Below, piece after piece: positions 4,151 through 58,404 of a DNA stretch of 64,000 bases. Each line of letters opens with the position of its first letter. The stretch's first letter is position 1. The notes under the pieces are model-generated. The model was not told the origin of the DNA. It made no database searches and saw only the letters and a program-made list of their open reading frames with translations. Source of the DNA: a virus; the IMG/VR virus record IMGVR_UViG_3300023184_000037, positions 64,001 to 128,000 of that record. One strand, written 5' to 3'. The translations under genes and the position numbers were made by a program.

Positions 4151-4519
4151 ATGAAAACATTTTTAGATTACATAGCAGAACAGAACATAACTGAAAATGA
4201 GTTACAAGTACTAAACGAATCCCTTCAAACCGAATGGACCGAAGAACTTGAGGCTAAAGTTGACGCTGCTCTAGAACAATTTTCAAACACTTATAAGAAC
4301 GCTGACGGAACCTATAATATCCAAGCGTTCAATGAAGAGATTACTAATGAAGGAGTTTTAGGTAGTATCTTTGGAGGACTTGCAGGTTTTGCTCTTGGTA
4401 AAACTGTTGGAAAAACTATTGCCAATATCTTGGGAATCCAAAGTGGTATAATGTATGACATGTTAACCTCAAGACTAGTAGGAGCCGCTCTTGGTTCTTC
4501 TCTTGGTAGTAAATTATAA
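4151..4519 (+). CDS. Small protein with capsid-targeting-like N-terminus and Gly-rich hydrophobic C-terminus
   Basis: MKTFLDYIAE resembles T4 internal protein CTS MKTYQEFIAE; GSIFGGLAGFALG and LVGAALG segments. Confidence 0.5.
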   Translation: MKTFLDYIAEQNITENELQVLNESLQTEWTEELEAKVDAALEQFSNTYKNADGTYNIQAFNEEITNEGVLGSIFGGLAGFALGKTVGKTIANILGIQSGIMYDMLTSRLVGAALGSSLGSKL

Positions 4520-4521
4520 AT

Positions 4522-5178
4522 ATGAATTTTGTAACAATTGACTTTTCCTTAAATTCCCCAGGTATTTGTATCTTCTCAGGTAATAAATATCATTTTATTG
4601 GGTATTTAAAACCAAACACAGGCACCAAAGCCGAACAAAAGATTCAGGAGGAACTACACTTACTTGAAGATTGTCAGATTCACGATCAGCCGGATTGGAC
4701 GAATAACGAGGCCTATTCGAAGAGTGAGATGATTAAAATCCAGCGTCACACCCAAACTGCAAATGACATCATTGATATGATTATTGAAATTACAGGAGAA
4801 GACCCTGAAGTTGTGGTTGCATTTGAGGGCTCCTCTTATGGTTCTTCGGGTGGAACTAATAATATTATCGATATGGCGGCTGGAGCTGCAATCTTAAAAA
4901 TGGAAATGATGTCGAGGCTTAAAGTCAAAGATATGTTAACAGTCGCACCTTCGACAATTAAGAAGCATGCTGGAAAGGGTAACATGAAGAAGGATGAACT
5001 TTGGGTTAAATTCCTGGATAACGTTTTAAACGATTCAGTGCTTGAAAACTCGTCACTGCTTAGATACTGTAAAACCCAAATCGGAGAGGTTAAAAAAGTC
5101 CCAAAACCCTTAGATGATTTGGTGGATGCCTACTTTCTGAATCATCTAGCCCGAACTCTATTTTACCCGGAGGCTTAA
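4522..5178 (+). CDS. RuvC-like Holliday junction resolvase
   Basis: RNase H-fold acidic motifs IDFSLNSPG, AFEG, VAPSTIKK, DDLVDAY. Confidence 0.7.
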   Translation: MNFVTIDFSLNSPGICIFSGNKYHFIGYLKPNTGTKAEQKIQEELHLLEDCQIHDQPDWTNNEAYSKSEMIKIQRHTQTANDIIDMIIEITGEDPEVVVAFEGSSYGSSGGTNNIIDMAAGAAILKMEMMSRLKVKDMLTVAPSTIKKHAGKGNMKKDELWVKFLDNVLNDSVLENSSLLRYCKTQIGEVKKVPKPLDDLVDAYFLNHLARTLFYPEA

Positions 5179-5185
5179 AGACATA

Positions 5186-5336
5186 AGTTATATTCAACAT
5201 ACAAGTTTTTGTTTCAAGAATCTTAAAAAATATTTTAAGAGGGTAAATTTGTGCCTCTAGGGTAAGATTCCCCTAATAAAAAAGATATATAATTAATATA
5301 GATTCTTGAAACAAAAAAGAAAGTTTCTATATAACT
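5186..5336. repeat. Inverted repeat formed by two back-to-back GAAAC-N17/18-TATAA promoters
   Basis: Perfect 18-bp arms tttttgtttcaagaatct (5206-5223) and agattcttgaaacaaaaa (5300-5317); outer arms agttata (5186-5192) and tataact (5330-5336). Confidence 0.85.
5308..5334 (+). promoter_or_regulatory. Putative middle promoter GAAAC-N17-TATAA (gp32)
   Basis: Same motif at 23303, 23592, 27455, 39389, 43009, 58913 (N17) and 49592 (N18). Confidence 0.75.
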
Positions 5337-5407
5337 ATCATAAGTAATTAAAGGGCCCTTAAGACTTATTAAATTAAAGTTTAAACAAAATTAAAGCAAT
5401 TAAAGAC

Positions 5408-9732: not shown

Positions 9733-12700
9733 ATGGCACAAGTAAATAAAATTTCTTCATTTAAGAGTTTTACTGAAGTTAAGAATCAGGAGGCTACGAT
9801 GAAATTAAGAGAAACTAACAATGCAAAAAGACAGGAAACTGTTGGTAAAATTGGAGCAATCCTTGACGAAATGGGGTTAACATCTCTATCTGAGTTAGAT
9901 GAAGAGAAAAAACAAGCACTAATTAACAAAATGTTTGGAAACGTTTCAGAAGATGAAGCAGACGATATTGAAGATGAACTTAATAAATTAGGAGAACCTA
10001 AAAAACTAGAAGAGAGAAATGCATTCTTAGGCGCAAGAGCAAAAGCTATTGAGGAAGAGAAAAATGAATTTGAGTTTAACGGTAAAACATATAAAGTAAC
10101 AGTAAACGAAGGTAATGCCTTTGGAGATGCTGTAAGAAAAGCAAAAGAAGACGGTAAAAAAGAATTTGAATTCGACGGTAAAACTTATAAAGTTGAGGAA
10201 GGTAATGCCTTTGGAGATGCTGTAAGAAAAGCAAAAGAGGCTGGAGAGAAAGAATTTGAATTTGATGGTAAAACTTACAAAGTTGAAGAGTCTATCGATG
10301 AGGCTAAAAGAACCAAATTCACTGGTAAAACTGCTCATGATTTATACACTCAAACTGGTGGAAAACCATTCGAAGTGTTCGTTAAAAACGACTGGTACTC
10401 AGTTAACCCAGAAGAATTAAAAGATGACAAAGATACTTATTTTACTGGTTATACTAGAGATGGTTCTGATTATGAATTCGATCTTAAAGATATCGACTTT
10501 ATACAAGAATCTTTAAATGAAGGTCGTGTTAAAGCAGCTACCCTACTTCAAGAATTAATTGATGGAAATACTTCTAGAGCAGAAGGTATTAAAATGTCAA
10601 AAGACCTTGCTGAACATTATTTATATTGGTTAAGAACTTCACCTTACGGTAAGAAAAATGCTGACCTACCTCTTTACATGTTAATCAAAGCAAGTTTTGT
10701 TTGGGGAATTGAAAGACAATTAGACCCTAAATTAAAAGTAGAACTTGAAGCACTAAAAGGTAGTATTAAAGAATCAGCAGATTTTATTACTGAGGCTCGT
10801 TCAATTAATAAAATCCAATATGACTGGTCTAAACTGACAACTACAATGGCTGCAACTGCACAAAATTGGAAAACTGCAGAAGGACCTGCTAAAGAAATGT
10901 TACTTGGAAAATTAAAAGAGATGACTGCTCAAAAGAAAGCTCTAGAAGCTGAATTGGATGCTGCTATTGCTGACAAAGACAAAGACATCGAATTGGTAGT
11001 TTCTGAAGCATTCTTTAGATTACCAAAAGACGTTATTGGTAACGAATTATACTTAGCAACTCAAAATTTATCTAACCTATATGGTAGAACTTTAGCTGGA
11101 AATGATATTGATGCCGGAGTTATTGATACTGTTATTAAAGCCCTAAACACTGTTAAAAAATCTATTAAGAAATTTAATAACAAAGAAGAGGTTTTAGGAA
11201 CTGTTTACGAAGCTAAAGCAAAAGACTTAAAACCAAACCACAAATACACATCAGACTATGGTGAAGTTACATTCATCAAATTAAATCCTGATGGTAAAAC
11301 TATGAAGTTGCATTCAAAAGAAACTGGAGAAATCAAAACCGACATTTCAAATGCATACAACATGGAATTAATTGAATCAGTTGTTAATGAAGGAGATATG
11401 ACTAAACACTATGATGGTTTTATTCTATTAGACCAAAAAGGAAAAAAGACATATAAGTTTAAATACGTTAAAGGAACTAGTAATGTTAATGTTGAAAATG
11501 CAGCTATTGACAAGTTAGTAAAAGCAACTGGAGAACCAAGAGCAAATTTCATGGTTCATGGTTTTATTAAAAAAGGTGAATGGGATAAAAATAACATTAG
11601 TGTATTTGAATCTTTAAATGAAGGAAGCGCTAAACAATTTGATGTTGACTTTAACAATATGGTTAGAAACATTAAATCTGGTTATGGTTGGATCGATCCA
11701 GAATACGTAGCAGATACTTGGGAAAATTCAAGTGACTCTATCGATTTTGAATTAGTTAAAGGAGAAATCTACAAAAGATTAATTGCTGCTAAATTATTAG
11801 CCTACGCTGATGACGAAGATGAAGAAGCAGCAGGACAATATGTTAAATCATTAAAAGAACTTGGAATTAAAGAATCTTTTATTAATGAGGCAGAAAAATT
11901 TAAAAGCACTCAAGATTTTGAAGAGTTCTTAGAGGAAATTGATGGTATGCCAGAGCATAGAATCAAAAGAATCATGGGTAAAGATTACATCGATACTCCA
12001 GGAGGTTTCAGAGATGAAGCAGATGATTACGATAATGACATTGTAGAGTATACTCTTTCTAACATGGGTCGTAAAGATTTTGAAGCACTTAAAGCATGGT
12101 GGGAAAACAATGTTCAAGAATCTTTAAATGAGGCTGAAGTAAAATCTGACGATGAATTTAAAGAATATGCAATGACTGTTTTGAAAAAAGCATTTGGAGA
12201 TGACTTTGATGAAGCAAAAGCAACTGAAGTTATTGATGGAATTCTTGGAAAATGTGGCGATGATTACGGAGCTGCAGTTGGAATGATAACAAGTTCTCTT
12301 GGAGAATCAGTAGTTACTGAAGGCATTTGGCCTAAGTCTAAATTAGCTAGTTCATTTCAGTTTAAATTAGCAGACGAACTTAAACAAAATTTTAAAGGAG
12401 TATTCTATAGTATAGGTAATGATTTATACCATAATGATGAAAAAGTATACTCAATCGATGGAGATAAAGATAGTATAGACTCTATAATTTCAAAACTTAA
12501 AAAAACTATTGATGAATCAGTAGTTACTGAAGGTTTTGATGCAAACTACTGGGAAGATTATCAAGAAGGAGCTCAAAAAACGAAAAACCCAACTGCTATG
12601 GTAATCATGCAAGACGTACAAGCTGCCGTTGAAGAGTGGAATGAGAATAATGAAGTTGGACCTGAAAATGAAGTAACACCGGCCGGAGAAAAGAAAGTCT

Positions 12701-12783
12701 TAAAATTAGCAAAAGAATTTGTTAAAGCAAAAGGTTGGATTTCATTCGATATTATCGATGCAATGATCGCTCAGGAATCTTAA
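9733..12783 (+). CDS. Modular putative internal head polyprotein (1016 aa) with repeated protease-site linkers
   Basis: Late promoter; KISSFKSF tag; linkers ESIDE, QESLNE x2, ESVVNE, FESLNE, KESFINE, ESVVTE x2. Confidence 0.6.
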   Translation: MAQVNKISSFKSFTEVKNQEATMKLRETNNAKRQETVGKIGAILDEMGLTSLSELDEEKKQALINKMFGNVSEDEADDIEDELNKLGEPKKLEERNAFLGARAKAIEEEKNEFEFNGKTYKVTVNEGNAFGDAVRKAKEDGKKEFEFDGKTYKVEEGNAFGDAVRKAKEAGEKEFEFDGKTYKVEESIDEAKRTKFTGKTAHDLYTQTGGKPFEVFVKNDWYSVNPEELKDDKDTYFTGYTRDGSDYEFDLKDIDFIQESLNEGRVKAATLLQELIDGNTSRAEGIKMSKDLAEHYLYWLRTSPYGKKNADLPLYMLIKASFVWGIERQLDPKLKVELEALKGSIKESADFITEARSINKIQYDWSKLTTTMAATAQNWKTAEGPAKEMLLGKLKEMTAQKKALEAELDAAIADKDKDIELVVSEAFFRLPKDVIGNELYLATQNLSNLYGRTLAGNDIDAGVIDTVIKALNTVKKSIKKFNNKEEVLGTVYEAKAKDLKPNHKYTSDYGEVTFIKLNPDGKTMKLHSKETGEIKTDISNAYNMELIESVVNEGDMTKHYDGFILLDQKGKKTYKFKYVKGTSNVNVENAAIDKLVKATGEPRANFMVHGFIKKGEWDKNNISVFESLNEGSAKQFDVDFNNMVRNIKSGYGWIDPEYVADTWENSSDSIDFELVKGEIYKRLIAAKLLAYADDEDEEAAGQYVKSLKELGIKESFINEAEKFKSTQDFEEFLEEIDGMPEHRIKRIMGKDYIDTPGGFRDEADDYDNDIVEYTLSNMGRKDFEALKAWWENNVQESLNEAEVKSDDEFKEYAMTVLKKAFGDDFDEAKATEVIDGILGKCGDDYGAAVGMITSSLGESVVTEGIWPKSKLASSFQFKLADELKQNFKGVFYSIGNDLYHNDEKVYSIDGDKDSIDSIISKLKKTIDESVVTEGFDANYWEDYQEGAQKTKNPTAMVIMQDVQAAVEEWNENNEVGPENEVTPAGEKKVLKLAKEFVKAKGWISFDIIDAMIAQES
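10015..10290 (+). repeat. Three ~30-aa repeats (GNAFGDAVRKAKE.G.KEFEFDGKTYKV), 90-bp period
   Basis: Near-identical units start at 10111 and 10201; diverged copy near 10015. Confidence 0.9.
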
Positions 12784-12800
12784 AAATAATTCAAATAAAT

Positions 12801-12844
12801 AATACCTGATGTTTTACCATGTCAGGTATTTTTATTATATTTAC
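12801..12844 (+). promoter_or_regulatory. Terminator hairpin overlapping putative early promoter (GTC-N12-TATATTTAC)
   Basis: aatacctga...tcaggtatt then T run; GTC 12821, TATATTTAC 12836; same motif at 21185, 25465, 59957. Confidence 0.65.
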
Positions 12845-12847
12845 ACT

Positions 12848-13120
12848 ATGAAACACATTAACCTATTTGAAGACTTCTTAAATGAATCTGATTATGCAGA
12901 AGCAAGGGCTGACCTTTCACTAAAGGCATCTGATCTACTTGCAAAAAGAAAGGAACTTAGAAATAAAGTTAATGACCTTAACCAAAAAGTGGATGACCCA
13001 AAATCTGCAATTCAAGCCCAAATAGCAACCCTTAAAATGCAGGCTCTGGACCTTGATAATCAAAAAATTAGAATTAACGCAAATATACTTGATTTAAGTA
13101 AAAAATTAGAAAGTTTATAA
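12848..13120 (+). CDS. Tagged small coiled-coil protein
   Basis: Start reassigned to ATG 12848 giving MKHINLFEDFLNE. Confidence 0.7.
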   Translation: MKHINLFEDFLNESDYAEARADLSLKASDLLAKRKELRNKVNDLNQKVDDPKSAIQAQIATLKMQALDLDNQKIRINANILDLSKKLESL

Positions 13121-13122
13121 CT

Positions 13123-13671
13123 ATGAAACACATCCAACTATTCGAACAATTTATTAACGAAGGAAAAAATGACTACGTTAAATATGTAAAAGACGCATCA
13201 AAGAAAATATTTGCACGTGGTGGTAACGGTCAAAATGTACTTGATTATCTAACAGAACTAGGAAAATATATTGATAGCACTATTGACCCAAAGGCAGACA
13301 AATGGTATGGTCCACAAACACCATCACTCTTCCAAGAACTAGTTAATAGTATGGGAATTGATGATATCGAACATAACAATGTTTCCGGTGTAAAAAGCAG
13401 CAAAAAACCAGAAGCTTTTAGAGGTGCTAGCGATTTAATCGCTGTTACCAATGATGCGATCAAACGCGCTAAAACTAATGGAGGAAATGACACTGGATGG
13501 GGTAAAGCCGCATTAGAACTTGCTGGACACCTTCAAGCTTATAAAGTAGGCGCTGGTAATCCAGGTCCTGGAGAAGACGGATTTTATACTGCTCCAACCT
13601 TAAGTACATTTACAAGATTGGTTGATGATATTGCAATGGAAAATATTAAAAAGAATAGAGTAGCTCAATAA
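13123..13671 (+). CDS. Tagged hypothetical protein with internal duplication
   Basis: MKHIQLFEQFINE; two similar halves each containing GGN and (P/T)xxF..LV.. Confidence 0.7.
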   Translation: MKHIQLFEQFINEGKNDYVKYVKDASKKIFARGGNGQNVLDYLTELGKYIDSTIDPKADKWYGPQTPSLFQELVNSMGIDDIEHNNVSGVKSSKKPEAFRGASDLIAVTNDAIKRAKTNGGNDTGWGKAALELAGHLQAYKVGAGNPGPGEDGFYTAPTLSTFTRLVDDIAMENIKKNRVAQ

Positions 13672-13678
13672 TTAAAAT

Positions 13679-14968
13679 ATGAAAACAAGAATCCTTAATT
13701 TTAATCAATTCATAACCGAAAGGTATGAAGTTAAATTAAATGAGCAATTGTTATTAGAGGGTGGAGCCGCTGGACACATGTCCCATCCATTCGATAATAA
13801 TGACCTAACATTTGGAGACTTCAAGAATATGATTATTGGTGGACTTCAAGGTGAACTAAACTTTGAAGAGGAACCTACTGAAAAAACAGACGGTCAAAAC
13901 GTTTTTGCAACTATTCAAAATGGTGAAGTTAAATTTGCCAGAAATAAAACTGAGTTGCAAAACCCTATGAGTCTTAAGGATTTCCAAAATAAATTTGAGG
14001 GACATGCTAGTAAACTAGTACAAGATACTTTCCAATTTGCAGCCGCTGATTTAGCAACCCTACTTGTAAAGTTACCTGCAAAAACGCAAGAGGAAGTGTT
14101 CCAGAATGGGCTGAACTTCATGAACATGGAGTTGATATATTCTGCTAACCCTAACGTAATTCACTATGACGTTGATGTAATTCAATTCCATGGCATTAAG
14201 AAGACTGATGGTGCTGGAAATATAGTTGGAGATGACAATAGTGCGGCAAAAAGTGTTAGTGGAGTACTTAAATCACTAAACGCTGATGTTGGAAGTACAT
14301 TTACAATAATTCCCCCACAAGTTATTAAACTACAAAAAGATATAAATTTTGAAGAGAATCAAACTAAATTCTTAGGAAAGCTTGATGCTCTTAAAAATCG
14401 TTATAATTTAACCGATGCCGATGCAGTTGCACGATACCATGAAATGTGGTGGAGAGAGCAAATTGATGCAACATTCGGTGATTTACCACAAAATATTAAA
14501 GAAGGACTATTATTAAGATGGGCCTATGATGATAAAAAAACCTTAAATCTTCGTTCATTAGACAAAGAGTTAACTAAAGAACAATCTGAAGCTGTTAAGA
14601 AATTTGACAAAGAGGATGTTAAAAAGAAATTCAAAGAAAACATTCGACCATTTGAAGACCTTTTCTTAGAATTGGGAAGTGTTATCTTAAAGAATGCTAG
14701 TAATTTTGTTGCTGCTTCTCCAGATAAAGAAATGCAAAGATTGCATACTGAAATCAGAACTGAAGCTGACAAAATTAAACTTAATGGAGACCTTACTCAA
14801 ATTGACAAAGTCGCAAAAGAACTTGACCGATTAGAGAGAATTGGAGGAATCCAGTCTATTATACCGACTGAAGGTATTGTATTCTCATACAAAGGACACA
14901 TGTACAAATTAACAGGAACATTCGCTGCTATTAATCAGTTGATGGGAATTATAAAATATGGAAGATAA
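13679..14968 (+). CDS. Ligase-like nucleotidyltransferase of T4-like phages (DUF6267-like)
   Basis: EGGAAGHMSHPFD, motif I TEKTDGQN, EGIVF, YKLTG; tag RILNFNQFITE. Confidence 0.6.
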   Translation: MKTRILNFNQFITERYEVKLNEQLLLEGGAAGHMSHPFDNNDLTFGDFKNMIIGGLQGELNFEEEPTEKTDGQNVFATIQNGEVKFARNKTELQNPMSLKDFQNKFEGHASKLVQDTFQFAAADLATLLVKLPAKTQEEVFQNGLNFMNMELIYSANPNVIHYDVDVIQFHGIKKTDGAGNIVGDDNSAAKSVSGVLKSLNADVGSTFTIIPPQVIKLQKDINFEENQTKFLGKLDALKNRYNLTDADAVARYHEMWWREQIDATFGDLPQNIKEGLLLRWAYDDKKTLNLRSLDKELTKEQSEAVKKFDKEDVKKKFKENIRPFEDLFLELGSVILKNASNFVAASPDKEMQRLHTEIRTEADKIKLNGDLTQIDKVAKELDRLERIGGIQSIIPTEGIVFSYKGHMYKLTGTFAAINQLMGIIKYGR

Positions 14969-14969
14969 A

Positions 14970-15422
14970 ATGAAACATATAAAACTGTTTGAACAATTTA
15001 TTAATGAATCAACAATTAATAACTTTAAACCTGAAGTATTAAAGAAATCTAATTCATTAGATGAAACATTCTTTAAGAAATTAATGCCACTTACCGCCAA
15101 AACTACCGATACTGCAATGGAATGGATCTGGGATTTTGAAGGAGAAACTATGTTTGTTCATTTCCAATATTTTGAAGTTAAACCACTTGGCAATATTATC
15201 GATACTCCAAAATACAGAATACATAATGCACAGTATTGGTTGAATGATACCCAATTAGCGCTACAAGGTAAAAGAGGTGAAGAGGTTAATGTAACCAAAT
15301 TATCATTTACTGATATAACAGACCCTAAAAAAGAGAAATCTTTAGGTTCGATTTGGGTTGATACTAAAGTTTATTTAGACGAGCAAAGAAGAGTATTTGA
15401 AGTAACAAAAAGTTCATCATAA
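14970..15422 (+). CDS. Tagged hypothetical protein
   Basis: Start reassigned to ATG 14970 giving MKHIKLFEQFINE. Confidence 0.7.
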   Translation: MKHIKLFEQFINESTINNFKPEVLKKSNSLDETFFKKLMPLTAKTTDTAMEWIWDFEGETMFVHFQYFEVKPLGNIIDTPKYRIHNAQYWLNDTQLALQGKRGEEVNVTKLSFTDITDPKKEKSLGSIWVDTKVYLDEQRRVFEVTKSSS

Positions 15423-15437
15423 TTAAAAAACAAAGAG

Positions 15438-17309
15438 ATGGCATTACAAAAATTAAGAGAGTATTTTAACGAAACCAATAGAGAAACTTTTATTGATATG
15501 TTAAAAAATAGAGTGTTAGTAACTGAGAAAGTTGCAGCACCTACATTTCTTGTTAAAAGAAATCTTGATGGGTTTGAATATTTTAAATCTTCAAATTCAG
15601 AAAAATTAAATCTAGTTGACAGAACTATTATCTCCTTATATGAGATTGCAATCAACTATATGCAGAGTTTACCAAGCTCTACTAAAAACCAAATGCCACT
15701 TGATTGGAGATTTGGATTTGAATATCTACCGGAAGTTAATGTATCTAAAATTAAATACGGAAAGACTCCAAAGAATAATTTAATCTTAACGCACATCCAG
15801 CAAATGGGAGAAGGCGATAAAGTTAAGAAAACAATAAATGACCCAGTTATTCTAAATAAATGGGCAAAAATTCTTGATGTACAACAACCAAGCGTAATTT
15901 TTGATGGCTATTTATCTCAATTACAAAGAGATGAACTTCTTGAATTACTTGGAATGAGCGATAGAGAATTTAGTGAATCATTTGACTATTTACAAGAAAC
16001 AAAAGACAAGGTTAGTTTTACCAGTAAAGTAGTTAAACTTTTTAATCCAAATGCCTTTGAAACCGCCTTAAATGCTGATATTGAAGACGAATTTGACGGA
16101 TTAGTTGTTAATTTTATCGACGAAAAATCAATAAAGTCTTTTAAATTAGAGGATTTTATCAGAAAAGGGGTTGTTGATAACTCTTCGAGCCACATGTATC
16201 AAATTGCAGTTACTGACTTCTTAGAATTTGCAACTCAATTTAATATCGACGAAATCCAATTAGAAGACGAGAGAGCAGATTATCGATATCTAGAAATAAT
16301 GTCAATAATGTTTAATGAATATGTTGACAAAAATTCCTCAAAATATATTGGAGTTAATTTTGAAAGCGCTGAATTTTCATCAGCACAATCTTTTAAATTA
16401 AACTCAAAATATATTACTAATGAAAAGACACTAAAATTTGTTTCAAATGACATTTTAGCAGAACTACTTAAAATGATTTTAGGTTCTTTTAGAAAGAAAA
16501 GAACTAAAACTAGCGATTTAATAGATGATGACACTATGGCACGTCTAAATGAAATTATCGAAAAAATCAACAAGAAAATATTTGTTGAAAGTACTGATGA
16601 GAATGCAATATATGATTACCAAAATTTTATGTTGCGCGATAAAATTAAATCTTCAGTTAACTTAAATGAGGCGCTTAAGCTGACTCATGTTGAACAAGGA
16701 AAACAACCAGTAAATATGTTTGTTGGACGATTCCAACCGTTTACATTAGGACATGCTAAAGTTTTAGAGACTATTCATAAAGAAAATGGCTACCCAGTAG
16801 TTGTATTCCTTGTTAAAGCAAAAACCCAAAAGAAGGGCGATGAATTTAGCAGACCATACGACGAAAAGACGCAAATTGAAATGTTCAAAAACGTTCAAAA
16901 GCAATATACATTCCTTAAAGAGATATTTGTAATTCCAACTGGAGGTATTGATATTATGTTTAATGAAATGAGACCTAAATATGAACCAGTACTTTGGGGA
17001 ACAGGAAGTGATAGAATGACAAGTTATGGTTATCAAGTTAATAATGATGCGTATAGAGACCAATTAAACTGTAGAGCTGATTTTGGACTTTTTGAAATTC
17101 CTAGAAACGACGATGATATTTCGGCTACTGCGGTTAGAAATGCCCTATTAGCAGGAGATGAGAAACAATTTCAGAATTTAACACCAAAGGCAGTTCATGG
17201 AATGTATGGTGAACTTAAATCTAAAATTGAAGATTCAATGGGAGTAGTTGCTGAAGGATTTACCAATGAAATTATGACATTCGAACAATTTATTAACAAA
17301 GATATATAA
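15438..17309 (+). CDS. Degenerate ligase-like domain fused to cytidylyltransferase-like (HxGH family) domain
   Basis: VTEKVAAPTF, FDGLVV, SFKL in N-half; GRFQPFTLGH, GSDR, ISATAVR in C-half; C-terminal IMTFEQFINK tag. Confidence 0.65.
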   Translation: MALQKLREYFNETNRETFIDMLKNRVLVTEKVAAPTFLVKRNLDGFEYFKSSNSEKLNLVDRTIISLYEIAINYMQSLPSSTKNQMPLDWRFGFEYLPEVNVSKIKYGKTPKNNLILTHIQQMGEGDKVKKTINDPVILNKWAKILDVQQPSVIFDGYLSQLQRDELLELLGMSDREFSESFDYLQETKDKVSFTSKVVKLFNPNAFETALNADIEDEFDGLVVNFIDEKSIKSFKLEDFIRKGVVDNSSSHMYQIAVTDFLEFATQFNIDEIQLEDERADYRYLEIMSIMFNEYVDKNSSKYIGVNFESAEFSSAQSFKLNSKYITNEKTLKFVSNDILAELLKMILGSFRKKRTKTSDLIDDDTMARLNEIIEKINKKIFVESTDENAIYDYQNFMLRDKIKSSVNLNEALKLTHVEQGKQPVNMFVGRFQPFTLGHAKVLETIHKENGYPVVVFLVKAKTQKKGDEFSRPYDEKTQIEMFKNVQKQYTFLKEIFVIPTGGIDIMFNEMRPKYEPVLWGTGSDRMTSYGYQVNNDAYRDQLNCRADFGLFEIPRNDDDISATAVRNALLAGDEKQFQNLTPKAVHGMYGELKSKIEDSMGVVAEGFTNEIMTFEQFINKDI

Positions 17310-17333
17310 AACATAAATAAATATAGAAATCCT

Positions 17334-19673: not shown

Positions 19674-19674
19674 A

Positions 19675-22744: not shown

Positions 22745-23293
22745 ATGCCAAGTACAAGTAAAGCACAACAAAAATTAATGGGTATGGCATACGCTCTTAA
22801 AAAAGGAGATATGGACCCAAAGGATGCAAGCAAAGAAGTTAAAGACCTTGCTGATTCGATGACACTTCAACAATTAAAAGATTTTGCAAGTACAGAACAT
22901 AAAGGACTTCCTGACCATGTTAAAGAGGGAGAAGACCATGAAGTTGGAATGGCAATGAGTCAACTTAATGCAATTTCAAAAGCAGTTGGAGAATTACTTC
23001 AAAAAATTGGAAGAGAGGAAAAGGACTTACCAGGTTGGCTACAAGACCATATTTCCCAATCTTATAATTATATCAAACAGGCAAATGATGGTTACTATGA
23101 GTTAGAGGAAATGGTTTCTCCTGATAGTATTGGAGGAATGGGAGCTACCGCTCTACCCTCACCGACAACAGTAGGTTCTGGAGATGTTCCGAAAGGAGCA
23201 GGAGATGCAAAAGAAGAGGAGGAAGAGGAAAAGAAAAGACGCAAAGAATTCTTAAAGAAGTTTAAATCTTTCGAAGATTTTATTAAGGATTAA
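22745..23293 (+). CDS. DUF3008-like late protein with C-terminal tag
   Basis: MPSTSKAQQKLMGMAYALKKG...LKDFAST; ends KFKSFEDFIKD; late promoter 22718. Confidence 0.6.
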   Translation: MPSTSKAQQKLMGMAYALKKGDMDPKDASKEVKDLADSMTLQQLKDFASTEHKGLPDHVKEGEDHEVGMAMSQLNAISKAVGELLQKIGREEKDLPGWLQDHISQSYNYIKQANDGYYELEEMVSPDSIGGMGATALPSPTTVGSGDVPKGAGDAKEEEEEEKKRRKEFLKKFKSFEDFIKD

Positions 23294-38861: not shown

Positions 38862-39194
38862 ATGAAACATATCCAATTATTTGAAGACTTCTTAAATGAG
38901 GCTTCTGATGCAAAACCAGCAATTTTAGTTAAATTATACAATGAATTGGCTAAAGCTAAAAATAAAAAATCATTGACTTGGGGATTTGATGGAATGGAAG
39001 AATTTCCTCACGTTATTCAATATGACGGTGGATTAGAATCAGAGGCACATAGACACGAAGGTGAGATGGAGACATACTCATTCTATTTGAATGACGATGG
39101 TAAAACTATCCTTGGAATCTATGATTTGAATGGTTATGCTGAAGAGTTAAAAACTCCAAAGGATGCTATTACATGGTGCAGAGCTAATGAATAG
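38862..39194 (+). CDS. Tagged hypothetical protein
   Basis: MKHIQLFEDFLNE; late promoter 38836. Confidence 0.7.
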   Translation: MKHIQLFEDFLNEASDAKPAILVKLYNELAKAKNKKSLTWGFDGMEEFPHVIQYDGGLESEAHRHEGEMETYSFYLNDDGKTILGIYDLNGYAEELKTPKDAITWCRANE

Positions 39195-51144: not shown

Positions 51145-52734
51145 ATGGCAGGATTTGTACAAAGAAATGGTCCATTGACTAAGCGACCGTTTAACCTAAG
51201 TAGTACCCTTAAGAAGTTATCTTCTTTTGGTATGTACTACGACGATTTGGTTCTTAGACAATCTCAAGCAATTGGGCCAGTAGAAGATGAAATTGGTTAC
51301 GGCCAAATGAACCCAACTGGGCTTGATAGTGATGACATGTATGGCGCGTTTGCAGCCCTTTCGATGGCTGATACTACAATGCGTAAAAATATTCCATTCT
51401 TTGACCAAGCATATCGTGGTAAAAGAGACGAATTACGATCATTTGCGCAGCATGATGAGATTGAAGACATATTAGATATACTTTGTGATGAATCGATAGT
51501 ATATGACAGTAAAAACTTCATAGCAAATCCAGAGATTATTGGAATGGAAGTTTCTGAAGATGTTCAAAAATATCTTAATAAAGCATATAGAGACCTTTAC
51601 CAATATTTTGGATTTAACCTAGACCAATCAGCATGGTACTTCTTTAGAAAATGGTTAATTGATGGTTATCTTGCATTTGAGATTATTTATAATCCTGAAA
51701 TGACTGAAGTTATTGGATTTAAAGAAATTGACCCAATCACATTAGTACCAGGTTATAACCATGAAGATGGTAAAAAAGTTTGGATTCAGTTTAAAGACGA
51801 TCCAGTTAAACAAAGAAAATTGTATGATGCACAAATTGTGTACATATCATATTCTTCGATTACTACCGCATCAAGGGTTTCTTACCTTGAAAGACTTGTA
51901 AGAGCATTCAACTTAATGAGAATTATGGAGCATACCAGAGTTATTTGGGCTGTTACAAATTCATCTTATAGAATGAAATTTATTATACCAGTCGGTGGTA
52001 AATCTAAAACAAGAGCAAAACAATCGCTTGCTCAGTTAATGAATAACTATAAAGAAGTTGTTGATTTTGATTGGGATAGTGCATCCCTTACAACTAACGG
52101 TAAACCAATGTTACAATTTAACAAAGAATATTGGTTACCTAGTAAAGACGGAGAGCAACCTGAGATTGAAACCCTTGGTGGTGATGGTCCAGAACTTAGT
52201 GACACAGAATCATTAAAATATTTCTCAGATAAACTTAAAGCAGTTTCAAAAATTCCTTACAATAGATTCATGTATGAAGATGGTGGAGGAGATTTCAATC
52301 TAGCAGCCGATGGTATGATTAGAGATGAGATTAAATTTGCTAAGTTCATTAATCGTTTACGTAGTTCATTCCAAGAGATATTGATTAAACCATTATGGCT
52401 TCAAATGTGTCTTAAATTTCCAGAATTTAAAGAGGACGCAGGATTTAGAACTCAAATTGCATTGAGATTTAACGAAGATAATATGTTCGCTGAATTAAAG
52501 ACAATGGAAATTATGCAAAAGAGACTTGAGTTTATTGGTTCAATGAAAGACTCGTTATCTACAACAAATCCAGTAACTATGGAAGAAACTCCATACTTTG
52601 ACCTTGAATTCTTGGTTGATAGATACCTTAAACTTTCTCCAGATGATAAAGCAGCTAATGATGCTTATAAAGCCCGAAATGATGCTAAAAAAGCAGCCGA
52701 ACCGGAAGAGGAAAATCCAATGATGGGAATGTAA
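51145..52734 (+). CDS. gp20: Portal protein (T4 gp20-like)
   Basis: FRKWLIDG, SYLERL, YWLP, EIETLGG, KIPYNR, RDEIKFAKFINRLR. Confidence 0.92.
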   Translation: MAGFVQRNGPLTKRPFNLSSTLKKLSSFGMYYDDLVLRQSQAIGPVEDEIGYGQMNPTGLDSDDMYGAFAALSMADTTMRKNIPFFDQAYRGKRDELRSFAQHDEIEDILDILCDESIVYDSKNFIANPEIIGMEVSEDVQKYLNKAYRDLYQYFGFNLDQSAWYFFRKWLIDGYLAFEIIYNPEMTEVIGFKEIDPITLVPGYNHEDGKKVWIQFKDDPVKQRKLYDAQIVYISYSSITTASRVSYLERLVRAFNLMRIMEHTRVIWAVTNSSYRMKFIIPVGGKSKTRAKQSLAQLMNNYKEVVDFDWDSASLTTNGKPMLQFNKEYWLPSKDGEQPEIETLGGDGPELSDTESLKYFSDKLKAVSKIPYNRFMYEDGGGDFNLAADGMIRDEIKFAKFINRLRSSFQEILIKPLWLQMCLKFPEFKEDAGFRTQIALRFNEDNMFAELKTMEIMQKRLEFIGSMKDSLSTTNPVTMEETPYFDLEFLVDRYLKLSPDDKAANDAYKARNDAKKAAEPEEENPMMGM

Positions 52735-52755: not shown

Positions 52756-53097
52756 ATGAAAATAATTAAAACATTTGAACAATTCACTAGTTCACTTCAA
52801 GAAGATGCAATCGACGCAGGAGAGGATTCAAAAGTAGTAGTTGATGATGTCTCACTTGATTCAGGAAAAACTATTAAATCTACTGAAATTTTAGGGGCTA
52901 TTATGTCTTCAAAAAGTGAGAAAGATTTTAAAGAATATTTCTACAAACAATATGGGAATACTGCATTTACCGAAGAGGATATGTTTACTCTAGTTAAATT
53001 CTTTAATGATTACCAAGAGGAAGTAGCTAATAAAGAAAAGGATGCCGAAAAAGACAAAGGAGACGGTGGAGAAGAAGATCCGTTAGCAGACATTTAA
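52756..53097 (+). CDS. Tagged acidic prohead core-like protein
   Basis: MKIIKTFEQF; between portal and protease. Confidence 0.55.
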   Translation: MKIIKTFEQFTSSLQEDAIDAGEDSKVVVDDVSLDSGKTIKSTEILGAIMSSKSEKDFKEYFYKQYGNTAFTEEDMFTLVKFFNDYQEEVANKEKDAEKDKGDGGEEDPLADI

Positions 53098-53157: not shown

Positions 53158-55077
53158 ATGACTAATAACTTACTGATCTTAGAAAGATCGTCAACGGAAT
53201 TAGAGTTTAAACAAGAAGGTGGGACTTATGTTCTAGAGGGTATCTTTGGAGAAATCGATAAGAAAAATCGTAATAACCGAATCTATACTGAATCTGAATA
53301 CTTACCTCAAATTGAAGCTCTTCAAGCAAAAATTAAATCATCTAAACTTTTAGGTGAATTAGACCATCCGCAAACATTTGATGTTTCATTAAAAAATGTT
53401 TCCCACATTATTGAAGAACTTACGTATGACAATAATACAAAACAGGTTAAAGGACGTATCAGATTATTAGATACTGATGCTGGAAGACAGGCAAAAGCTC
53501 TTGTAGATGCTGGTGTTCCTCTTCAAATTTCAAGTAGAGCAGCTGGAGCAGTTGAATCTAATGGAACTGTAAAAATCAAACAATTATTTACTTATGATTT
53601 AGTAGCAGACCCTGGGTTTGAGAACGCTGAATTAAAAAGAGTTAATGAAGCCTATGGCTTTGTTAATGAAGGAAACGACTTATTTATTTACGAGATAAAT
53701 AAAGAAAACGAAAAACAACCAATCGAAAATATAAACGAAACAAAAATGGCAGAGTCTAAATTTATTACGGTTGAGGATTTTAATAAATACTCTAAATATC
53801 TTTCTGAAGAAATCAAATCTATTAAAGAAGGTATGAATTCTTTAACAGAAGCAGAGTCTACTAGTTCTCAATTAGGAACCCTAAAAGAATACACTGATTA
53901 TTTAGCTAAGAAATTAGAGGAATCAATCGCATATTCTGAACACATTGCTGAAAAAGCAGACCAAGGTATACAATATGCAGAAAATCTTGCAGAAAAAGTT
54001 GACCAAGGTATTCAATATTCTGAGCATATCGCTGAAAGCGTTGATGCTATCAAAAATTACACTAACTATTTAGCTGAATCTTACAATGAAGGTTCAACTT
54101 CTTACGAGAACTTAATTAAATATACTGAATATTTAAGAGAGAACTTAGAGAAAGTAACTGAATATGCTGAGTACGTTGCAGAAACTGTAAATAGTAATCT
54201 ATTATTAGAAGACGAAGCAGGAATCCCAGCTGAAGACTTAAAAGATGATTCTAAAAATGTTTCTCCAGAAGTAGTTGATGCTGATGGTAATGTAATTACT
54301 GGAAAACCAGAAGATGTTGAAGGTGAATTAAAACTTAAAGGTAAAGGAGCCGCTGGAGTTGAAGTTACTGAAGCAAAAGATGGATCTGAAGCAGGTTTAC
54401 CAGCTGAAGACCTTAAAGACGGTACTAAAGATGTTTCTCCTAAAGTAGTTGATGCTGACGGTAACGTAATCACTGGAACTCCAGAAGATGTAGAAAAGAA
54501 TTTAGAACTTGCTGGTAAAGGTGATGCCGCTGGTAAACAAGTTGATGCAATGGAGGCTTACAAAAATTCAATCACTTCTAAATTAGAAGCATTAGTTGAA
54601 AGTGTAAATGCTAAAAAATCAGATAACCCAACATTCTTTAAATTTATCTCTGAAGAGAAGGTAAATGAATTTAATGCCCTATCTACTGAAGATAAAACTA
54701 AAGTTGTAAGTGCAGTTGAAGGTAGAGGTTACCTAACAGAAGGACAAATATTAGCTCTATGGAATACTTCATTAAATGGAACTATAGAAACTCATGATGC
54801 ACCTGCAGTTATTAAATTAATGCCAACTGAATACCATGATACTTGGGCTAAATGTTCTGAAGGTAAGAAAAACCAAATCTTAGCACAGTCTAAATATCAC
54901 AAAGTTGAAACAGCTTACCAAGTTGCAAACTTCTGGCAAACTAGAGACCTTAGAGAGGTTGCTCCAGTAATGGAAAAAATCACTATGGTAAATGAATCAG
55001 CAGTTGAACCAACACAAACATTAGGTTATGATGCTACTGAATTAGGTGCAGAAATTGCAAAAAGATTCGCTAGATAA
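53158..55077 (+). CDS. gp21: Prohead protease (gp21-like) fused to scaffold/core protein (gp22-like)
   Basis: KNRNNRIY, GELDHP, VSHII, ISSRAAG, YDLVADPG; then YxEYxAE repeats; in-frame ATG at 53746. Confidence 0.88.
   Translation: MTNNLLILERSSTELEFKQEGGTYVLEGIFGEIDKKNRNNRIYTESEYLPQIEALQAKIKSSKLLGELDHPQTFDVSLKNVSHIIEELTYDNNTKQVKGRIRLLDTDAGRQAKALVDAGVPLQISSRAAGAVESNGTVKIKQLFTYDLVADPGFENAELKRVNEAYGFVNEGNDLFIYEINKENEKQPIENINETKMAESKFITVEDFNKYSKYLSEEIKSIKEGMNSLTEAESTSSQLGTLKEYTDYLAKKLEESIAYSEHIAEKADQGIQYAENLAEKVDQGIQYSEHIAESVDAIKNYTNYLAESYNEGSTSYENLIKYTEYLRENLEKVTEYAEYVAETVNSNLLLEDEAGIPAEDLKDDSKNVSPEVVDADGNVITGKPEDVEGELKLKGKGAAGVEVTEAKDGSEAGLPAEDLKDGTKDVSPKVVDADGNVITGTPEDVEKNLELAGKGDAAGKQVDAMEAYKNSITSKLEALVESVNAKKSDNPTFFKFISEEKVNEFNALSTEDKTKVVSAVEGRGYLTEGQILALWNTSLNGTIETHDAPAVIKLMPTEYHDTWAKCSEGKKNQILAQSKYHKVETAYQVANFWQTRDLREVAPVMEKITMVNESAVEPTQTLGYDATELGAEIAKRFAR
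54214..54534 (+). repeat. Tandem ~58-aa duplication (174-bp period) in scaffold region
   Basis: EAGIPAEDLKD...VVDADGNVITG.PEDVE twice, at 54214 and 54388. Confidence 0.85.
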
Positions 55078-55079
55078 TC

Positions 55080-55352
55080 ATGAAATATATCCAACTATTT
55101 GAAGGTTTTCTTAATGAAAATAATCAAAAGAAAATAGAGAAAGCCGCTGATAAATGGTGGAATTCTTTAATGGAAGAACCAGAACATAAGCATAATAAAG
55201 GATGGGATGCTGAAGACATGGATATGTTTATTGACCACCTTATGGAATTAGGTCTGGTTGATGAAGATCGTGATGACCTAGAGGAAGTACGTTCAGATAT
55301 GGAACAATATGTTGAAAATACTTTAGGATTCGAATTTGATTACGACAACTAA
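55080..55352 (+). CDS. Tagged acidic small protein
   Basis: MKYIQLFEGFLNE. Confidence 0.65.
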   Translation: MKYIQLFEGFLNENNQKKIEKAADKWWNSLMEEPEHKHNKGWDAEDMDMFIDHLMELGLVDEDRDDLEEVRSDMEQYVENTLGFEFDYDN

Positions 55353-55513: not shown

Positions 55514-57016
55514 ATGGCAAATTTAATTAATGAAGCAGAAATCAGAGCAACGTGGGCTCCGATTATCGAATCTGCGACTGGTATCAACGATGCAAGCAAA
55601 TTAGCTTGGATGTCAGAATACTGTCACAACCACAAATTATACGAAGATGCTTCTCAAATGACTTTAGGTACTGCTGGTAATATCTTTGGTATGGGTGCTA
55701 CAACTTTACCTGGAAATACTTTCTCAGGTGGTATGTCTACTACAAAAGGTTCTGGTGATAAAGCTCCTTCTTTACTTCCTTTAGCAATGCAAGTTGCTGC
55801 TCAAACTATCGGTCTTGACTTAGTACCAGTAGTTCCTATGGCTGGTCCAATGGGATTATTATCTTACTTAGACTTTGTTTACGAAGGTGGTAAATTAGCT
55901 GGAACTACTGCTCCAACTTATGTTAAAGCTAACCCAGTTGCAGGTGTTGTAGATATTGCTGCTGCTACAGGTGGTTCTCCAGCTGTTCCAACATCTACAT
56001 CTTATACTTACATTGGAAAATCTCGTATCGACGGTTATTCAATCTTTAAAGTAAATGGTAACCCAGTTGCTGCTAACGTTGCTGCCGATTTACTATTAGC
56101 TGTAAATGCTGTATTATCTCCTGATACTACTGCTACTATCTTAGATGTACAATTAGTTAAAGCTTTAGAGGATCACGTTAAAGGATTCGCTGCTTCTACT
56201 GCTTCTGGTACTCCATTCTCAAGAGAAGCTGGAGAACAAACTCCAGATAAAATCATGGGTCTATCTTTATTCTCTAAATCAGTTACAGCTGAAACTTTCC
56301 AAGTTGCTGCTGCTGTTACAAGAGAGCAAGTTCAAGATTTAAAACAATTCGGAGTTGACGCTGTTGCTCAAGTTGAAGCTGTTTTAACTAATGAATTAAC
56401 TCAAGGTATTAACCAATACATCTTAGGAAGAATCAGAACTTTAGGTGCTCTTAACGTTACTAGAGCATTCAGTGCTAACGCATTCGATATAAGCTTACCT
56501 ACTGCTGCATCTTTAAATGGTGGAGAAACTTTACCTTCTGTTCACAGAAGAATCCTTTCTCAAATCTTAGCCGCTGCTAACTTAATTGCTAACCGTGGTA
56601 GAAGAGGTGCTGGTAACTTTGCAGTATGTGGACCACAAACTGCTACAGTTTTACAATCAATTGCTGGTTTTGTTGCAAACCCAATGGCAAATACTTTCGC
56701 ACAAGCTGCTGGAGCTATCTACCCATTAGGATCTGTTGCTGGAATCAACATATATACTGACCCTACAATGGACTGGTACGATTATTCAATCGCAGTTGGT
56801 AGAAAAGGAGACGGAAATGGACCTGGTATTGTATTCATGCCTTACTTAATGGCTGAATCAGTTCAAGCTATTGCTGAAGGAACTATGGCTCCTAAAGTAG
56901 CTGTTAAATCTAGATTTGCTCTAGTTGATGCAGGATTCCACCCTGAAACTCAATATGTTGAGTTTAACGTAACTGTTAATGGTAGCGCTACTGCTAACTT
57001 ATTAACTTTAGCTTAA
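55514..57016 (+). CDS. gp23: Major capsid protein (T4 gp23-like)
   Basis: WAPIIE, VVPMAGPMG, EQVQDLK, RRGAGNF, FMPY, KSRFAL; strongly biased codon use; late promoter 55397. Confidence 0.92.
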   Translation: MANLINEAEIRATWAPIIESATGINDASKLAWMSEYCHNHKLYEDASQMTLGTAGNIFGMGATTLPGNTFSGGMSTTKGSGDKAPSLLPLAMQVAAQTIGLDLVPVVPMAGPMGLLSYLDFVYEGGKLAGTTAPTYVKANPVAGVVDIAAATGGSPAVPTSTSYTYIGKSRIDGYSIFKVNGNPVAANVAADLLLAVNAVLSPDTTATILDVQLVKALEDHVKGFAASTASGTPFSREAGEQTPDKIMGLSLFSKSVTAETFQVAAAVTREQVQDLKQFGVDAVAQVEAVLTNELTQGINQYILGRIRTLGALNVTRAFSANAFDISLPTAASLNGGETLPSVHRRILSQILAAANLIANRGRRGAGNFAVCGPQTATVLQSIAGFVANPMANTFAQAAGAIYPLGSVAGINIYTDPTMDWYDYSIAVGRKGDGNGPGIVFMPYLMAESVQAIAEGTMAPKVAVKSRFALVDAGFHPETQYVEFNVTVNGSATANLLTLA

Positions 57017-57051
57017 TATTTTAAATTAGAATCTACATTCTAATTATACTT

Positions 57052-57083
57052 AAAGGGAACTGAGAAATCAGTTCCCTTTTTTT
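57052..57083 (+). terminator. Intrinsic terminator after capsid gene
   Basis: aaagggaactga-gaaa-tcagttcccttt then T run. Confidence 0.9.
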
Positions 57084-57120
57084 GTGATATATAATCTATC
57101 AAACAAAATACATTAAAATT

Positions 57121-58404
57121 ATGAACAAATTTGAAAATTGGTATACAAGTATACTTGAAGAGGTTGCAACAGCACCTACCAACACCCTAGTTGGAGATGT
57201 TGATACGATTATAAGTTCACTAGGTACCCTTGTTAAAGAATTAACTGAGGAACTTAATGGACCTGAATTTAATGAACTAAACGAGGCTGATGCAGAAGGT
57301 CCAAGTAAAGTTTGGCAATGGATTTGGTGGATGCCAAAGGCCCGAAAAGCACAACAAAAGGTCAATAAGATTAAATTAAACATCACTGATATGGAAGGTG
57401 CTTCAGCAGATGCGCCAGATGCAGAACAAAAAGCAAAAATTACTGCTAAAGCAAAACAAGCTAAAGAACAAGCATCAGAACTTCAAAAGATGGTTGATGA
57501 TAAATATGGAGCAAAAGGAGAACTTGTTAAAAGAGTCCTTGGTACAGAAAAAATCGCTGGACAAATTGCATCTATTAAAAGAGCAACTGGATTAGAAGAT
57601 AACCCAGAAAGAATTGCATCTTATAAAGAAAAAATGGCAGAGCTTCAGGCAAAGTATAAAGAAGATCAGGCTGCAATCAAAGAACTTGAACCTTCTGAAG
57701 ATGATATTGCTGCTGAAAAAACCCGTAAAAAAGAAGAGGCAGAAGCACAAGCTAAATTAAATAAAGACGCAGAAGCTGCTAAGAAAGGTAAATCTGAAAA
57801 AGATGACACTGAAGCAACGGATGATAAAACTCCACCTGCAACGGATGATAAAACTCCACCTGCAACGGATGATAAAACTCCAGCTGAAACTCCAGAAGAA
57901 AAGGAAGCTAGAGAAAAGAAAGAGAAAGAAGCAGCTGAAACTCCAGAAGAAAAGGAAGCTAGAGAAAAGAAAGAGAAAGAAGCAGTTGAAACTCCAGAAG
58001 AAAAAGAAGCTAGAGAAAAGAAAGAGAAAGAAGACGCTGATGCTCAAAAAATAGAAGCATTAAATACTGCAATTTCAGGACTAGAAACAAAATTAAAGGA
58101 TGCAGAAGCAGCTGAACCTAAAGATGAAGAAGCTATCAAGACATTAAAATCTGAAATTGAAACTAAAAAAGGAGAACTAGATGCATTAAAACCATCTGAA
58201 TCTTTAGTTAATAGAGCAAATGCCGCTGGTTTAAATGAATTAGCAACTGAAATAGGTTCTAAATTTAGTTGGCAGGTTGCTGAGGGAACTGTATTGCACC
58301 AAAAATATGATGCAATTATTAAAAAGGCAGAATACTCAAATACATTAAATGAGTCAAGATACCAAAATCTAAGTGTTAAAGATAAATTCTCTAAATTACT
58401 ATAA
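57121..58404 (+). CDS. Charged coiled-coil late protein with tandem repeats
   Basis: Late promoter 57086; MNKFENWY..ILEE; ELNE, TLNE sites. Confidence 0.7.
   Translation: MNKFENWYTSILEEVATAPTNTLVGDVDTIISSLGTLVKELTEELNGPEFNELNEADAEGPSKVWQWIWWMPKARKAQQKVNKIKLNITDMEGASADAPDAEQKAKITAKAKQAKEQASELQKMVDDKYGAKGELVKRVLGTEKIAGQIASIKRATGLEDNPERIASYKEKMAELQAKYKEDQAAIKELEPSEDDIAAEKTRKKEEAEAQAKLNKDAEAAKKGKSEKDDTEATDDKTPPATDDKTPPATDDKTPAETPEEKEAREKKEKEAAETPEEKEAREKKEKEAVETPEEKEAREKKEKEDADAQKIEALNTAISGLETKLKDAEAAEPKDEEAIKTLKSEIETKKGELDALKPSESLVNRANAAGLNELATEIGSKFSWQVAEGTVLHQKYDAIIKKAEYSNTLNESRYQNLSVKDKFSKLL
57814..58033 (+). repeat. 3x24-bp (ATDDKTPP) followed by 3x51-bp (ETPEEKEAREKKEKEAA) coding tandem repeats
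   Basis: Units at 57814, 57838, 57862 and at 57886, 57937, 57988. Confidence 0.92.

Follow-up and report, generated by a model that had tools for sequence, protein, structure and literature searches.

We analyzed a 64,000-nucleotide (nt) stretch of viral DNA (the window), bases 64001-128000 of the 145,137-bp IMG/VR record IMGVR_UViG_3300023184_000037 (34% GC; CheckV completeness 46%), and found that one short N-terminal peptide, hereafter the tag, begins about 20 open reading frames (ORFs) of this record whose products are otherwise unrelated. The source is a large, uncultured lake-water phage related to T4. A preliminary description of the window had taken the shared start for a capsid-targeting signal, and this interpretation is now supported by a T4-type head machinery, by the match of the tag core to the T4 capsid-targeting sequence (CTS) and to the T4 gp23 maturation site, by copies of the core repeated in the scaffold, by a preference for Ala or Ser after the last Glu of the tag and by module borders that coincide with tag ends. 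We propose, with a probability of roughly three in four, that the tag is an enlarged T4-type CTS by which these unrelated proteins would enter the capsid, lose the tag by cleavage and reach the host together with the DNA. Beyond the sequence pattern itself, what we say about loading, cutting, retention, ejection and function is inferred.

The consensus of the tag is M-K-H-I-K-L-[FY]-E-[QED]-F-[ILV]-N-E, 13 residues at the N-terminus, and its core can be written [FY]xx[FY][ILV]xE, followed by Ala, Ser or Gly. When the whole 145-kb record was translated in six frames, a strict regular expression gave 13 matches, and all 13 lay right after the ATG of a plus-strand ORF. A profile built from the tags, which was used on this genome and on its relatives, found 16 places in the genome, all of them ORF starts and 13 of them with E < 1e-6. 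A looser form of the core was observed at 17 N-termini, against 0.6 expected from its internal rate; this total is made up of 16 counted N-termini and ORF 12848, whose tag lies 13 codons inside the ORF call used.

Within the window, where ORFs are named by their first position, ten carry the canonical tag at a profile E <= 7e-7 (ORFs 12848, 13123, 14970, 19675, 20282, 20796, 36700, 38862, 52756 and 55080). At ORFs 4151, 13679 and 17334 the tag is shorter or shifted and retains the core [FYW]xx[FYW][ILVM]xE, and the N-terminal tag of ORF 15438 is degenerate, with a weak resemblance to the consensus. The preliminary description had listed 16 tagged starts in the window; their translation bears out the ten canonical tags and the three variants, leaves 15438 as a weak case and gives no support for an N-terminal tag on ORFs 9733 and 57121. 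Six more tagged ORFs lie beyond the window, at genome positions 1452, 2094, 2538, 24692, 38281 and 139850. With the tag removed, BLAST groups none of the window's tagged ORFs together, in agreement with the earlier remark that the sequence after the tag is unrelated.

Conservation ends abruptly past the final Glu. Every strong tag has Phe or Tyr at P7 and Phe at P4 (counting back from Glu as P1); the tags are 9-14 residues long and near-invariant, with Ile, Leu, Val or Met at P3. IMG/VR was searched with an exact degenerate DNA pattern, which recovered at least 165 tags at a minimum of 119 loci; we put the information fixed by this pattern at about 50 bits, which leaves fewer than one match to be expected by chance. 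All of these tags end in [ILVM]-N-E, of which N and E are fixed by the search pattern. The following residue is left unconstrained by the pattern; among 152 tags, Ala accounts for 30% of these residues and Ser for 19%, where the background frequency of either is about 6-7%. When the final Glu of a tag is missing, an [LIV]xE regularly follows within a few residues, and T4 ipI shows the same. Viewed as a helix the tag is strongly amphipathic, with a hydrophobic moment reached by no more than 1.8% of shuffles. The IMG/VR copies comprise 133 distinct DNA versions, the commonest tag peptide is encoded by 20 different ones and synonymous codon differences exceed non-synonymous ones, which argues that selection acts on the peptide and not on the DNA.

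The CTS of T4 is found on IPI, IPII, IPIII and Alt and is removed by the prohead protease gp21 (Mullaney and Black 1996, reviewed in PMC9026906, PMC3012670 and PMC5694885); targeting depends on its positions 4 and 7, processing on positions 8 and 10 (PMC9026906). In the T4 sequences, read directly from NC_000866, ipII and ipIII start with a 10-residue CTS that has Y4, F7, I8 and E10 and is followed by Ala, ipI has a related start and its cut lies further on, after I-T-E, and gp22 has an N-terminal stretch ending in I-A-E|A. The maturation site of gp23 at E65, F-x-x-F-L-x-E|A, shows the same P7/P4/P3/P1 pattern as the tag, and the T4 sites share its preference for Ala or Ser after Glu. Like the T4 CTS, then, the tag is a short putative propeptide at the N-terminus of otherwise unrelated proteins, with aromatic residues at P7 and P4, Ile, Leu or Val at P3 and Glu at P1 before Ala or Ser; unlike it, the tag has 13 residues instead of 10 and an extra conserved M-K-H-I-K-L head. 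Closest to the T4 form is the small ORF 4151 (4151..4519, plus strand; 122 residues), whose 10-residue, T4-style variant was missed by the 13-mer profile and has M-K-T, the two aromatic positions and I-A-E in common with T4 ipII/ipIII.

The similarity extends to the head module, which Pfam and PHROG matches identify as T4-type. It comprises a gp20 portal (51145..52734, plus strand; PF07230, E 1e-70), an S77 prohead protease (about residues 1-171) fused to the scaffold in a single protein of 639 residues (53158..55077, plus strand; PF03420, phrog_207) and a major capsid protein of the gp23 family (55514..57016, plus strand; PF07068); S77 protease, scaffold core, portal and capsid protein are all features shared with T4. 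The capsid protein has I-x-E sites after residues 7 and 19. Its first seven residues are as given in the preliminary description, but the I-x-E at residue 19 is the site conserved in relatives (about residues 19-21 in LR756500.1, PAU, PTm1 and pT24). By capsid protein, the closest record is LR756500.1, a 462-kb uncultured huge phage (52% identity), and other near records are the Lak megaphages, Sphingomonas phage PAU, Tenacibaculum phages PTm1 and pT24 and a Flavobacterium lake phage. The same head-gene neighborhood has been reported in freshwater phages with predicted Bacteroidetes hosts, in an account that notes hypothetical genes beside the protease and capsid genes and mentions no tag (PMC9723584). 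The host range at issue here is that of freshwater phages that probably infect Bacteroidota (cf. PMC9723584), in contrast to the hosts of the T-even phages.

Two of the canonical tags belong to small acidic proteins encoded inside this module, both with an isoelectric point (pI) of 4.2 and in this respect like T4 core proteins. ORF 52756 (52756..53097, plus strand; 113 residues; tag E 4e-7) lies between the portal and protease genes, which in a comparison of gene order is the position of T4 gp67/gp68. Its tag lacks E13 and has L-Q-E three residues later, resembling T4 ipI, which likewise has no immediate Glu and a later L-x-E. ORF 55080 (55080..55352, plus strand; 90 residues; tag E 4e-8) lies between the scaffold and capsid genes and has tagged orthologues in IMG/VR. 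Downstream of the capsid gene, ORF 57121 (57121..58404, plus strand), which had been listed earlier, gives no profile match and has no core motif; considered as a gp24-like protein, it showed no similarity to the capsid protein and was removed from the tagged set.

The core of the tag is concentrated in the phage's own scaffold, an observation that is new here. Twelve matches to the strict core lie internally in proteins of the genome, 11 of them outside the tagged set, and the protease-scaffold protein holds five of the 12. An array of Y-x-x-[YH]-[LIV]-[AS]-E units, several of them 14 residues apart, occupies scaffold residues 205-345 (nt 53770-54192), and residues 493-499 (nt 54634-54654) read F-x-x-F-I-S-E, the tag's own pattern. 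Among 117 scaffold homologues, which are not independent because they are at least 64% identical, the mean is 7 core units and the number is never below 6, compared with 0.09 in shuffled sequence; the more distant scaffold of LR756500.1 has four. The S77 protease-scaffold fusion was present in five of five large tag-bearing contigs examined.

Motifs equivalent to the end of the tag also stand between protein modules. ORF 15438 (15438..17309, plus strand) encodes a two-module protein of 623 residues whose C-terminal module is an HxGH nucleotidyltransferase (PF01467, phrog_3041). Its modules are joined by L-N-E|A (residues 409-411), and this joint aligns with the tag-mature junction of a stand-alone, canonically tagged HxGH nucleotidyltransferase of 198 residues on another contig. 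ORF 17334 (17334..19673, plus strand; 779 residues), a multi-module candidate cargo protein with a short tag variant that keeps the core motif and with no usable match in the protein atlas, has three linkers in all, including internal E-S-V-V-N-E and L-N-E; its C-terminal 315 residues start after L-N-E|A, which is the mature start of a 349-residue stand-alone tagged homologue. The predicted cargo polyprotein of ORF 9733 (9733..12783, plus strand; 1016 residues), which has no convincing N-terminal tag, has about eight linkers between its modules, each fitting E-S-[LVF]-[NV]-[NT]-E and then Gly or Ala, and part of it occurs as a canonically tagged stand-alone protein of 250 residues in the complete relative G001, with the junctions aligned. 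On two IMG/VR contigs, a tagged 347-residue module is fused in frame to a second complete tag and module. Taken together, the three independent alignments of joints with tag ends, the linkers and the compensating [LIV]xE sites suggest that the motif is probably cut at these positions.

The proteome has 18 copies of the 5-mer [FY]E[QEDG][FY][ILVKT]; 14 of them stand at N-termini, three within the last 14 residues of a protein and one internally, in the polyprotein. The three C-terminal copies, where 0.04 were expected, are those of ORF 15438 (nt 17271-17306), of ORF 22745 (nt 23264-23290) and of the genome ORF 140442-140951. ORF 22745 (22745..23293, plus strand) encodes a DUF3008 protein whose last nine residues are the copy of the tag core. 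An x-N-E site precedes two of the three, and in the close relative G004 the copy on ORF 15438 is kept and that on the homologue of ORF 22745 is not. The C-terminal copies may be working C-terminal tags, for which T4 Alt, with propeptides at its two ends (PMC9026906), offers a precedent; alternatively, they may have been left behind when a tagged gene downstream fused in frame.

We then turned the tag profile on related genomes, a check that had been suggested together with the preliminary description, and obtained 15-27 matches per genome in five large contigs: 19 in the complete, 256-kb G001, 26-27 in G002-G004 (234-236 kb) and 15 in the 170-kb G005. After removal of the tag, at least 172 tagged ORFs fell into no fewer than 85 BLAST clusters, 54 of them singletons among the matches listed. 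The 236-kb contig G004, with 26 tagged ORFs, is near-identical to the window and syntenic over the cargo cluster described below, with the last two cassettes (ORFs 20282 and 20796) replaced by different tagged genes; its orthologue of ORF 14970 has an insertion within the tag and keeps the L-x-E|S junction. G001 has 16 consecutive tagged genes, none of them similar to those of the window. Both the number of cargo families and the swapping of cassettes between close relatives agree with the earlier view of an interchangeable set.

Other lineages have variants of the tag. LR756500.1 shows K-Y-I-K-E-Y-E-[DE]-F-[ILV]-N-E at about 16 ORF starts. In the cultured phage PAU (JQ362498.1), M-K-T-[LI]-x-x-L-[YF]-E begins 14 ORFs, and a reversed-pattern control gave none. 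The tagged set of PAU includes the scaffold (gp152) and an annotated internal capsid protein (gp154), and its prohead protease is likewise S77.

That the tagged proteins include enzymes, as had been supposed, is supported by Pfam, PHROG and structure matches for two of them, the HxGH nucleotidyltransferase of ORF 15438 and an RNA-ligase-fold, DUF6267-like protein of 429 residues encoded by ORF 13679 (13679..14968, plus strand). The latter begins with a variant tag that has the core motif, and L-N-E and L-L-E sites lie between this tag and the domain. E68, K69, D71 and G72 (K-x-D-G, with the motif I lysine) are invariant in 20 sequences of the family. The AlphaFold2 (AF2) model has a predicted local distance difference test score (pLDDT) of 83, and each of the 39 structures that match it best is an RNA or DNA ligase, with 6vtf at the head (Z 9.1, root-mean-square deviation 4.2, 189 aligned residues); Foldseek E-values are weak (2e-3), and the family has no match in Pfam and none in a profile search of PDB sequences. 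The motif and the modeled fold mark the product of ORF 13679 as a putative ATP-dependent RNA ligase of the covalent nucleotidyltransferase superfamily.

Elsewhere, in most of 1851 representative relatives, the DUF6267-like ligase-fold module is the C-terminal part of chains of 500-1900 residues. All 24 relatives that were read have an [LIV]xE directly ahead of the module's conserved G-G (in the motif G-G-A-x-G-H), and long chains often also hold HxGH nucleotidyltransferase and P-loop kinase modules. Speculatively, the combination of ligase, HxGH protein and kinase recalls RNA repair.

The motif ATATATAA occurs 38 times in forward and 8 times in reverse orientation, usually 3-33 nt ahead of a start. 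It stands ahead of the portal gene, the protease-scaffold gene and seven or eight tagged genes, and 108 nt upstream of the capsid gene; we regard it as a putative late-type motif common to the head genes and these tagged genes. The preliminary description had placed most tagged ORFs downstream of GATATATAA, which holds for the seven or eight with ATATATAA 3-33 nt upstream, whereas the rest lie inside operons. A different arrangement, a hairpin with a T-run and then a conserved T-T-T-A-T-A-T-T-T-A-C-A, is found before three tagged genes (window 12790-12847; genome 38220-38280 and 139790-139849), and this element may represent a second promoter class distinct from ATATATAA.

We propose that the tag would form an amphipathic helix whose core copies a unit repeated about seven times in the phage's own scaffold, and that by virtue of this likeness tagged proteins would co-assemble with the scaffolding core during prohead building. 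The S77 protease is then predicted to cut after Glu in the scaffold repeats, at the ends of the tags, at the E-S-x-x-N-E linkers and near the N-terminus of the capsid protein. As in T4, scaffold pieces and tags would exit the head, and mature cargo would stay inside and be expelled with the DNA. An anti-defense role of the cargo is a suggestion of the same kind; a cargo that contains enzymes and changes quickly fits early host takeover or counter-defense.

Several observations weigh against this model. We found no virion proteome, N-terminal sequence or expression data for the phage or its relatives. The tag profile has no match in the cultured relatives PTm1 and pT24 (Tenacibaculum) and MaF61 (Flavobacterium), and the head-module N-termini of PTm1 and pT24 share no tag. 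Mature cargo is not systematically basic, unlike the internal proteins of T4, and some of it consists of metabolic-looking enzymes (ATP-grasp), which would be unusual inside a virion. With regard to helix mimicry, the AF2 model of the protease-scaffold protein has a mean pLDDT of 42, and its long helices over the repeat array are unusable. Upstream of the tagged block 12848-17309 there is, in place of the late motif, a hairpin resembling a terminator, together with a promoter-like element of another kind. Finally, the [LIV]xE ahead of the ligase domain could be part of that domain and not a cut site.

Among other explanations, the one that survives best, while still unlikely, accepts that tagged proteins enter the prohead and are cut, and holds that they are mostly core or scaffold accessories, degraded and expelled like T4 gp67/gp68, and not delivered cargo. 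ORFs 52756 and 55080, small, acidic and at the gp67/gp68 position, are what this explanation would lead one to expect, and it accommodates both the tag on the scaffold of PAU itself and the copying of the scaffold repeat by the tag. It fits poorly with the remaining tagged proteins, most of which are encoded outside the head module and several of which are folded enzymes of 360-780 residues; moreover, unrelated families in such numbers, with turnover between close relatives, are unexpected for assembly parts.

It is considerably less probable that the tag is a recognition peptide for another phage machine, for example the ClpC/ClpP pair encoded 50 kb upstream, and serves as a degron or adaptor handle that times protein lifetime. 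Although ClpP is present in G000, G001, G004 and LR756500.1, PAU, which has an S77 protease and 14 genes with a related tag, lacks it, and the link to ClpP is therefore not required. To our knowledge T4, which has the same tag core, has no ClpP, and this also counts against such a role. A Clp handle would furthermore leave unexplained the copies in the scaffold, Ala or Ser after Glu, the equivalence of tag ends and linkers and the presence of tagged genes in the head module.

Least credible is a role of the shared start as leader peptide for a modifying enzyme, as in ribosomally synthesized and post-translationally modified peptides, or as a nucleic-acid element such as a translation-initiation enhancer or recombination cassette: AT-rich first codons could favor initiation and tag DNA could promote cassette exchange, but one peptide has 20 DNA versions, and the three C-terminal copies of the motif and those within polyproteins stand where initiation of translation plays no part. 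A radical-SAM leader was considered and rejected, PF04055 being absent from G000, G001 (complete), G004, G005 and PAU and scoring in 14 of 14 control genomes.

The remaining candidate cargo genes of the window are all on the plus strand, and most cargo ORFs have no family match in Pfam or PHROGs. The cargo cluster, 12848-21128, begins with ORF 12848 (12848..13120; 90 residues; profile E 3e-9), the IMG/VR orthologues of which are also tagged, followed by the canonically tagged ORF 13123 (13123..13671; 182 residues), which has no Pfam or PHROG match. ORF 14970 (14970..15422; 150 residues) gives the best profile match of the genome, E 3e-10, and three further tagged ORFs lie at 19675-20280, 20282-20782 and 20796-21128 (profile E 1e-9 to 7e-7). 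Elsewhere in the window, ORF 36700 (36700..37782; 360 residues; tag E 5e-7) encodes a candidate ATP-grasp enzyme with weak ATP-grasp Pfam matches below the cut-off, and its homologues on other contigs carry the canonical tag. ORF 38862 (38862..39194; 110 residues; tag E 2e-9) has ATATATAA 17 nt upstream. Between these two lies a gene for an untagged alanine-dehydrogenase/PNT-like enzyme (37787-38848), and the tagged genes that flank it are both preceded by the late-type motif.

Three untagged ORFs at 21220-22719 have no counterpart at the corresponding position of the close relative G004. They include a 174-residue fragment of an ATP-dependent DNA-ligase adenylation domain (PF01068) and a 166-residue Pol-beta-like palm/thumb protein (PF14791, PF14792), both of which seem to be incomplete enzymes because they are short. 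Beside the head module, the sole sizeable minus-strand ORF (58399-58899; 166 residues) has no Pfam match at E <= 1; in related freshwater phages, a reverse-strand gene for ribosomal protein bS21 has been described in the head-module neighborhood (PMC9723584).

That T4 uses a CTS, and that internal proteins vary among T-even phages, is textbook knowledge (PMC3012670, PMC9026906, PMC5694885): internal-protein loci differ between T-even phages, and diverse proteins share the CTS alone (PMC3012670, PMC9026906). The phage described here resembles them in its clustered cargo genes behind a conserved tag and in their quick turnover between close relatives, and differs in its far larger scale, with at least 85 families across the contigs and about 20-27 tagged genes per genome against 3-5 in T4. 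Further differences from T4 are large enzymes and multi-module polyproteins joined by the predicted cutting motif, a cargo that is not generally basic, the fusion of protease to scaffold and the tag-like copies at C-termini. In phiKZ-like giant phages such as SPN3US, a related prohead protease processes many of the proteins inside the head after Glu, and the role suggested for their propeptides is to direct these proteins to the prohead (PMC5694885, PMC10052503). Such propeptides mostly exceed 100 residues, are not conserved between proteins and are cut at A/S/G-x-E (PMC5694885), a description that does not fit the short, near-invariant tags with Ile, Leu, Val or Met at P3.

Within the incomplete coverage of the literature available to us, no paper was found that describes this tag, its scale, its use in linkers or the scaffold repeats, and a full-text search for the tag strings and the T4 CTS string returned none. 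Polyvalent multi-domain phage proteins delivered with the DNA were reportedly described by Iyer et al. in 2017. The long chains of unrelated, effector-like modules seen here are like them, with the DUF6267 ligase-fold module at the C-terminus and kinase and HxGH modules in the same chains; they are unlike them in having recognizable protease-site linkers and in that the modules also stand alone behind a tag.

A more far-reaching version of the capsid-targeting model is possible, and we offer it tentatively, with more doubt than belief. According to this version, the tag would be a portable copy of the scaffold repeat, an "address plus scissor" code used at the N-terminus, at the C-terminus and at module joints, with which the whole clade would load, cut apart and inject a large and quickly exchangeable set of proteins, predictable from sequence and comprising at least 85 families. 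The set would include pre-packaged RNA-repair-like enzymes (the ligase fold, the HxGH nucleotidyltransferase and, in relatives, the P-loop kinase) that might act before phage gene expression and could counter, for instance, host anticodon nucleases or NAD depletion.

If the tag is indeed an enlarged CTS, the injected protein set of abundant uncultured freshwater jumbo phages would be readable from sequence by means of a 13-residue profile, and the same rule, with lineage variants, would apply to PAU-like and huge phages. PAU would offer a practical system for testing the idea of capsid loading. The capsid-targeting principle of T4 would then scale from a handful to dozens of proteins per genome, and mimicry of the scaffold repeat would suggest a concrete basis for targeting. 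The tag would also point to enzymes that phages may deliver ready-made, including an RNA-ligase-fold protein, and would provide a natural, compact system of tag and linker for loading foreign proteins into the capsids of Bacteroidota phages.

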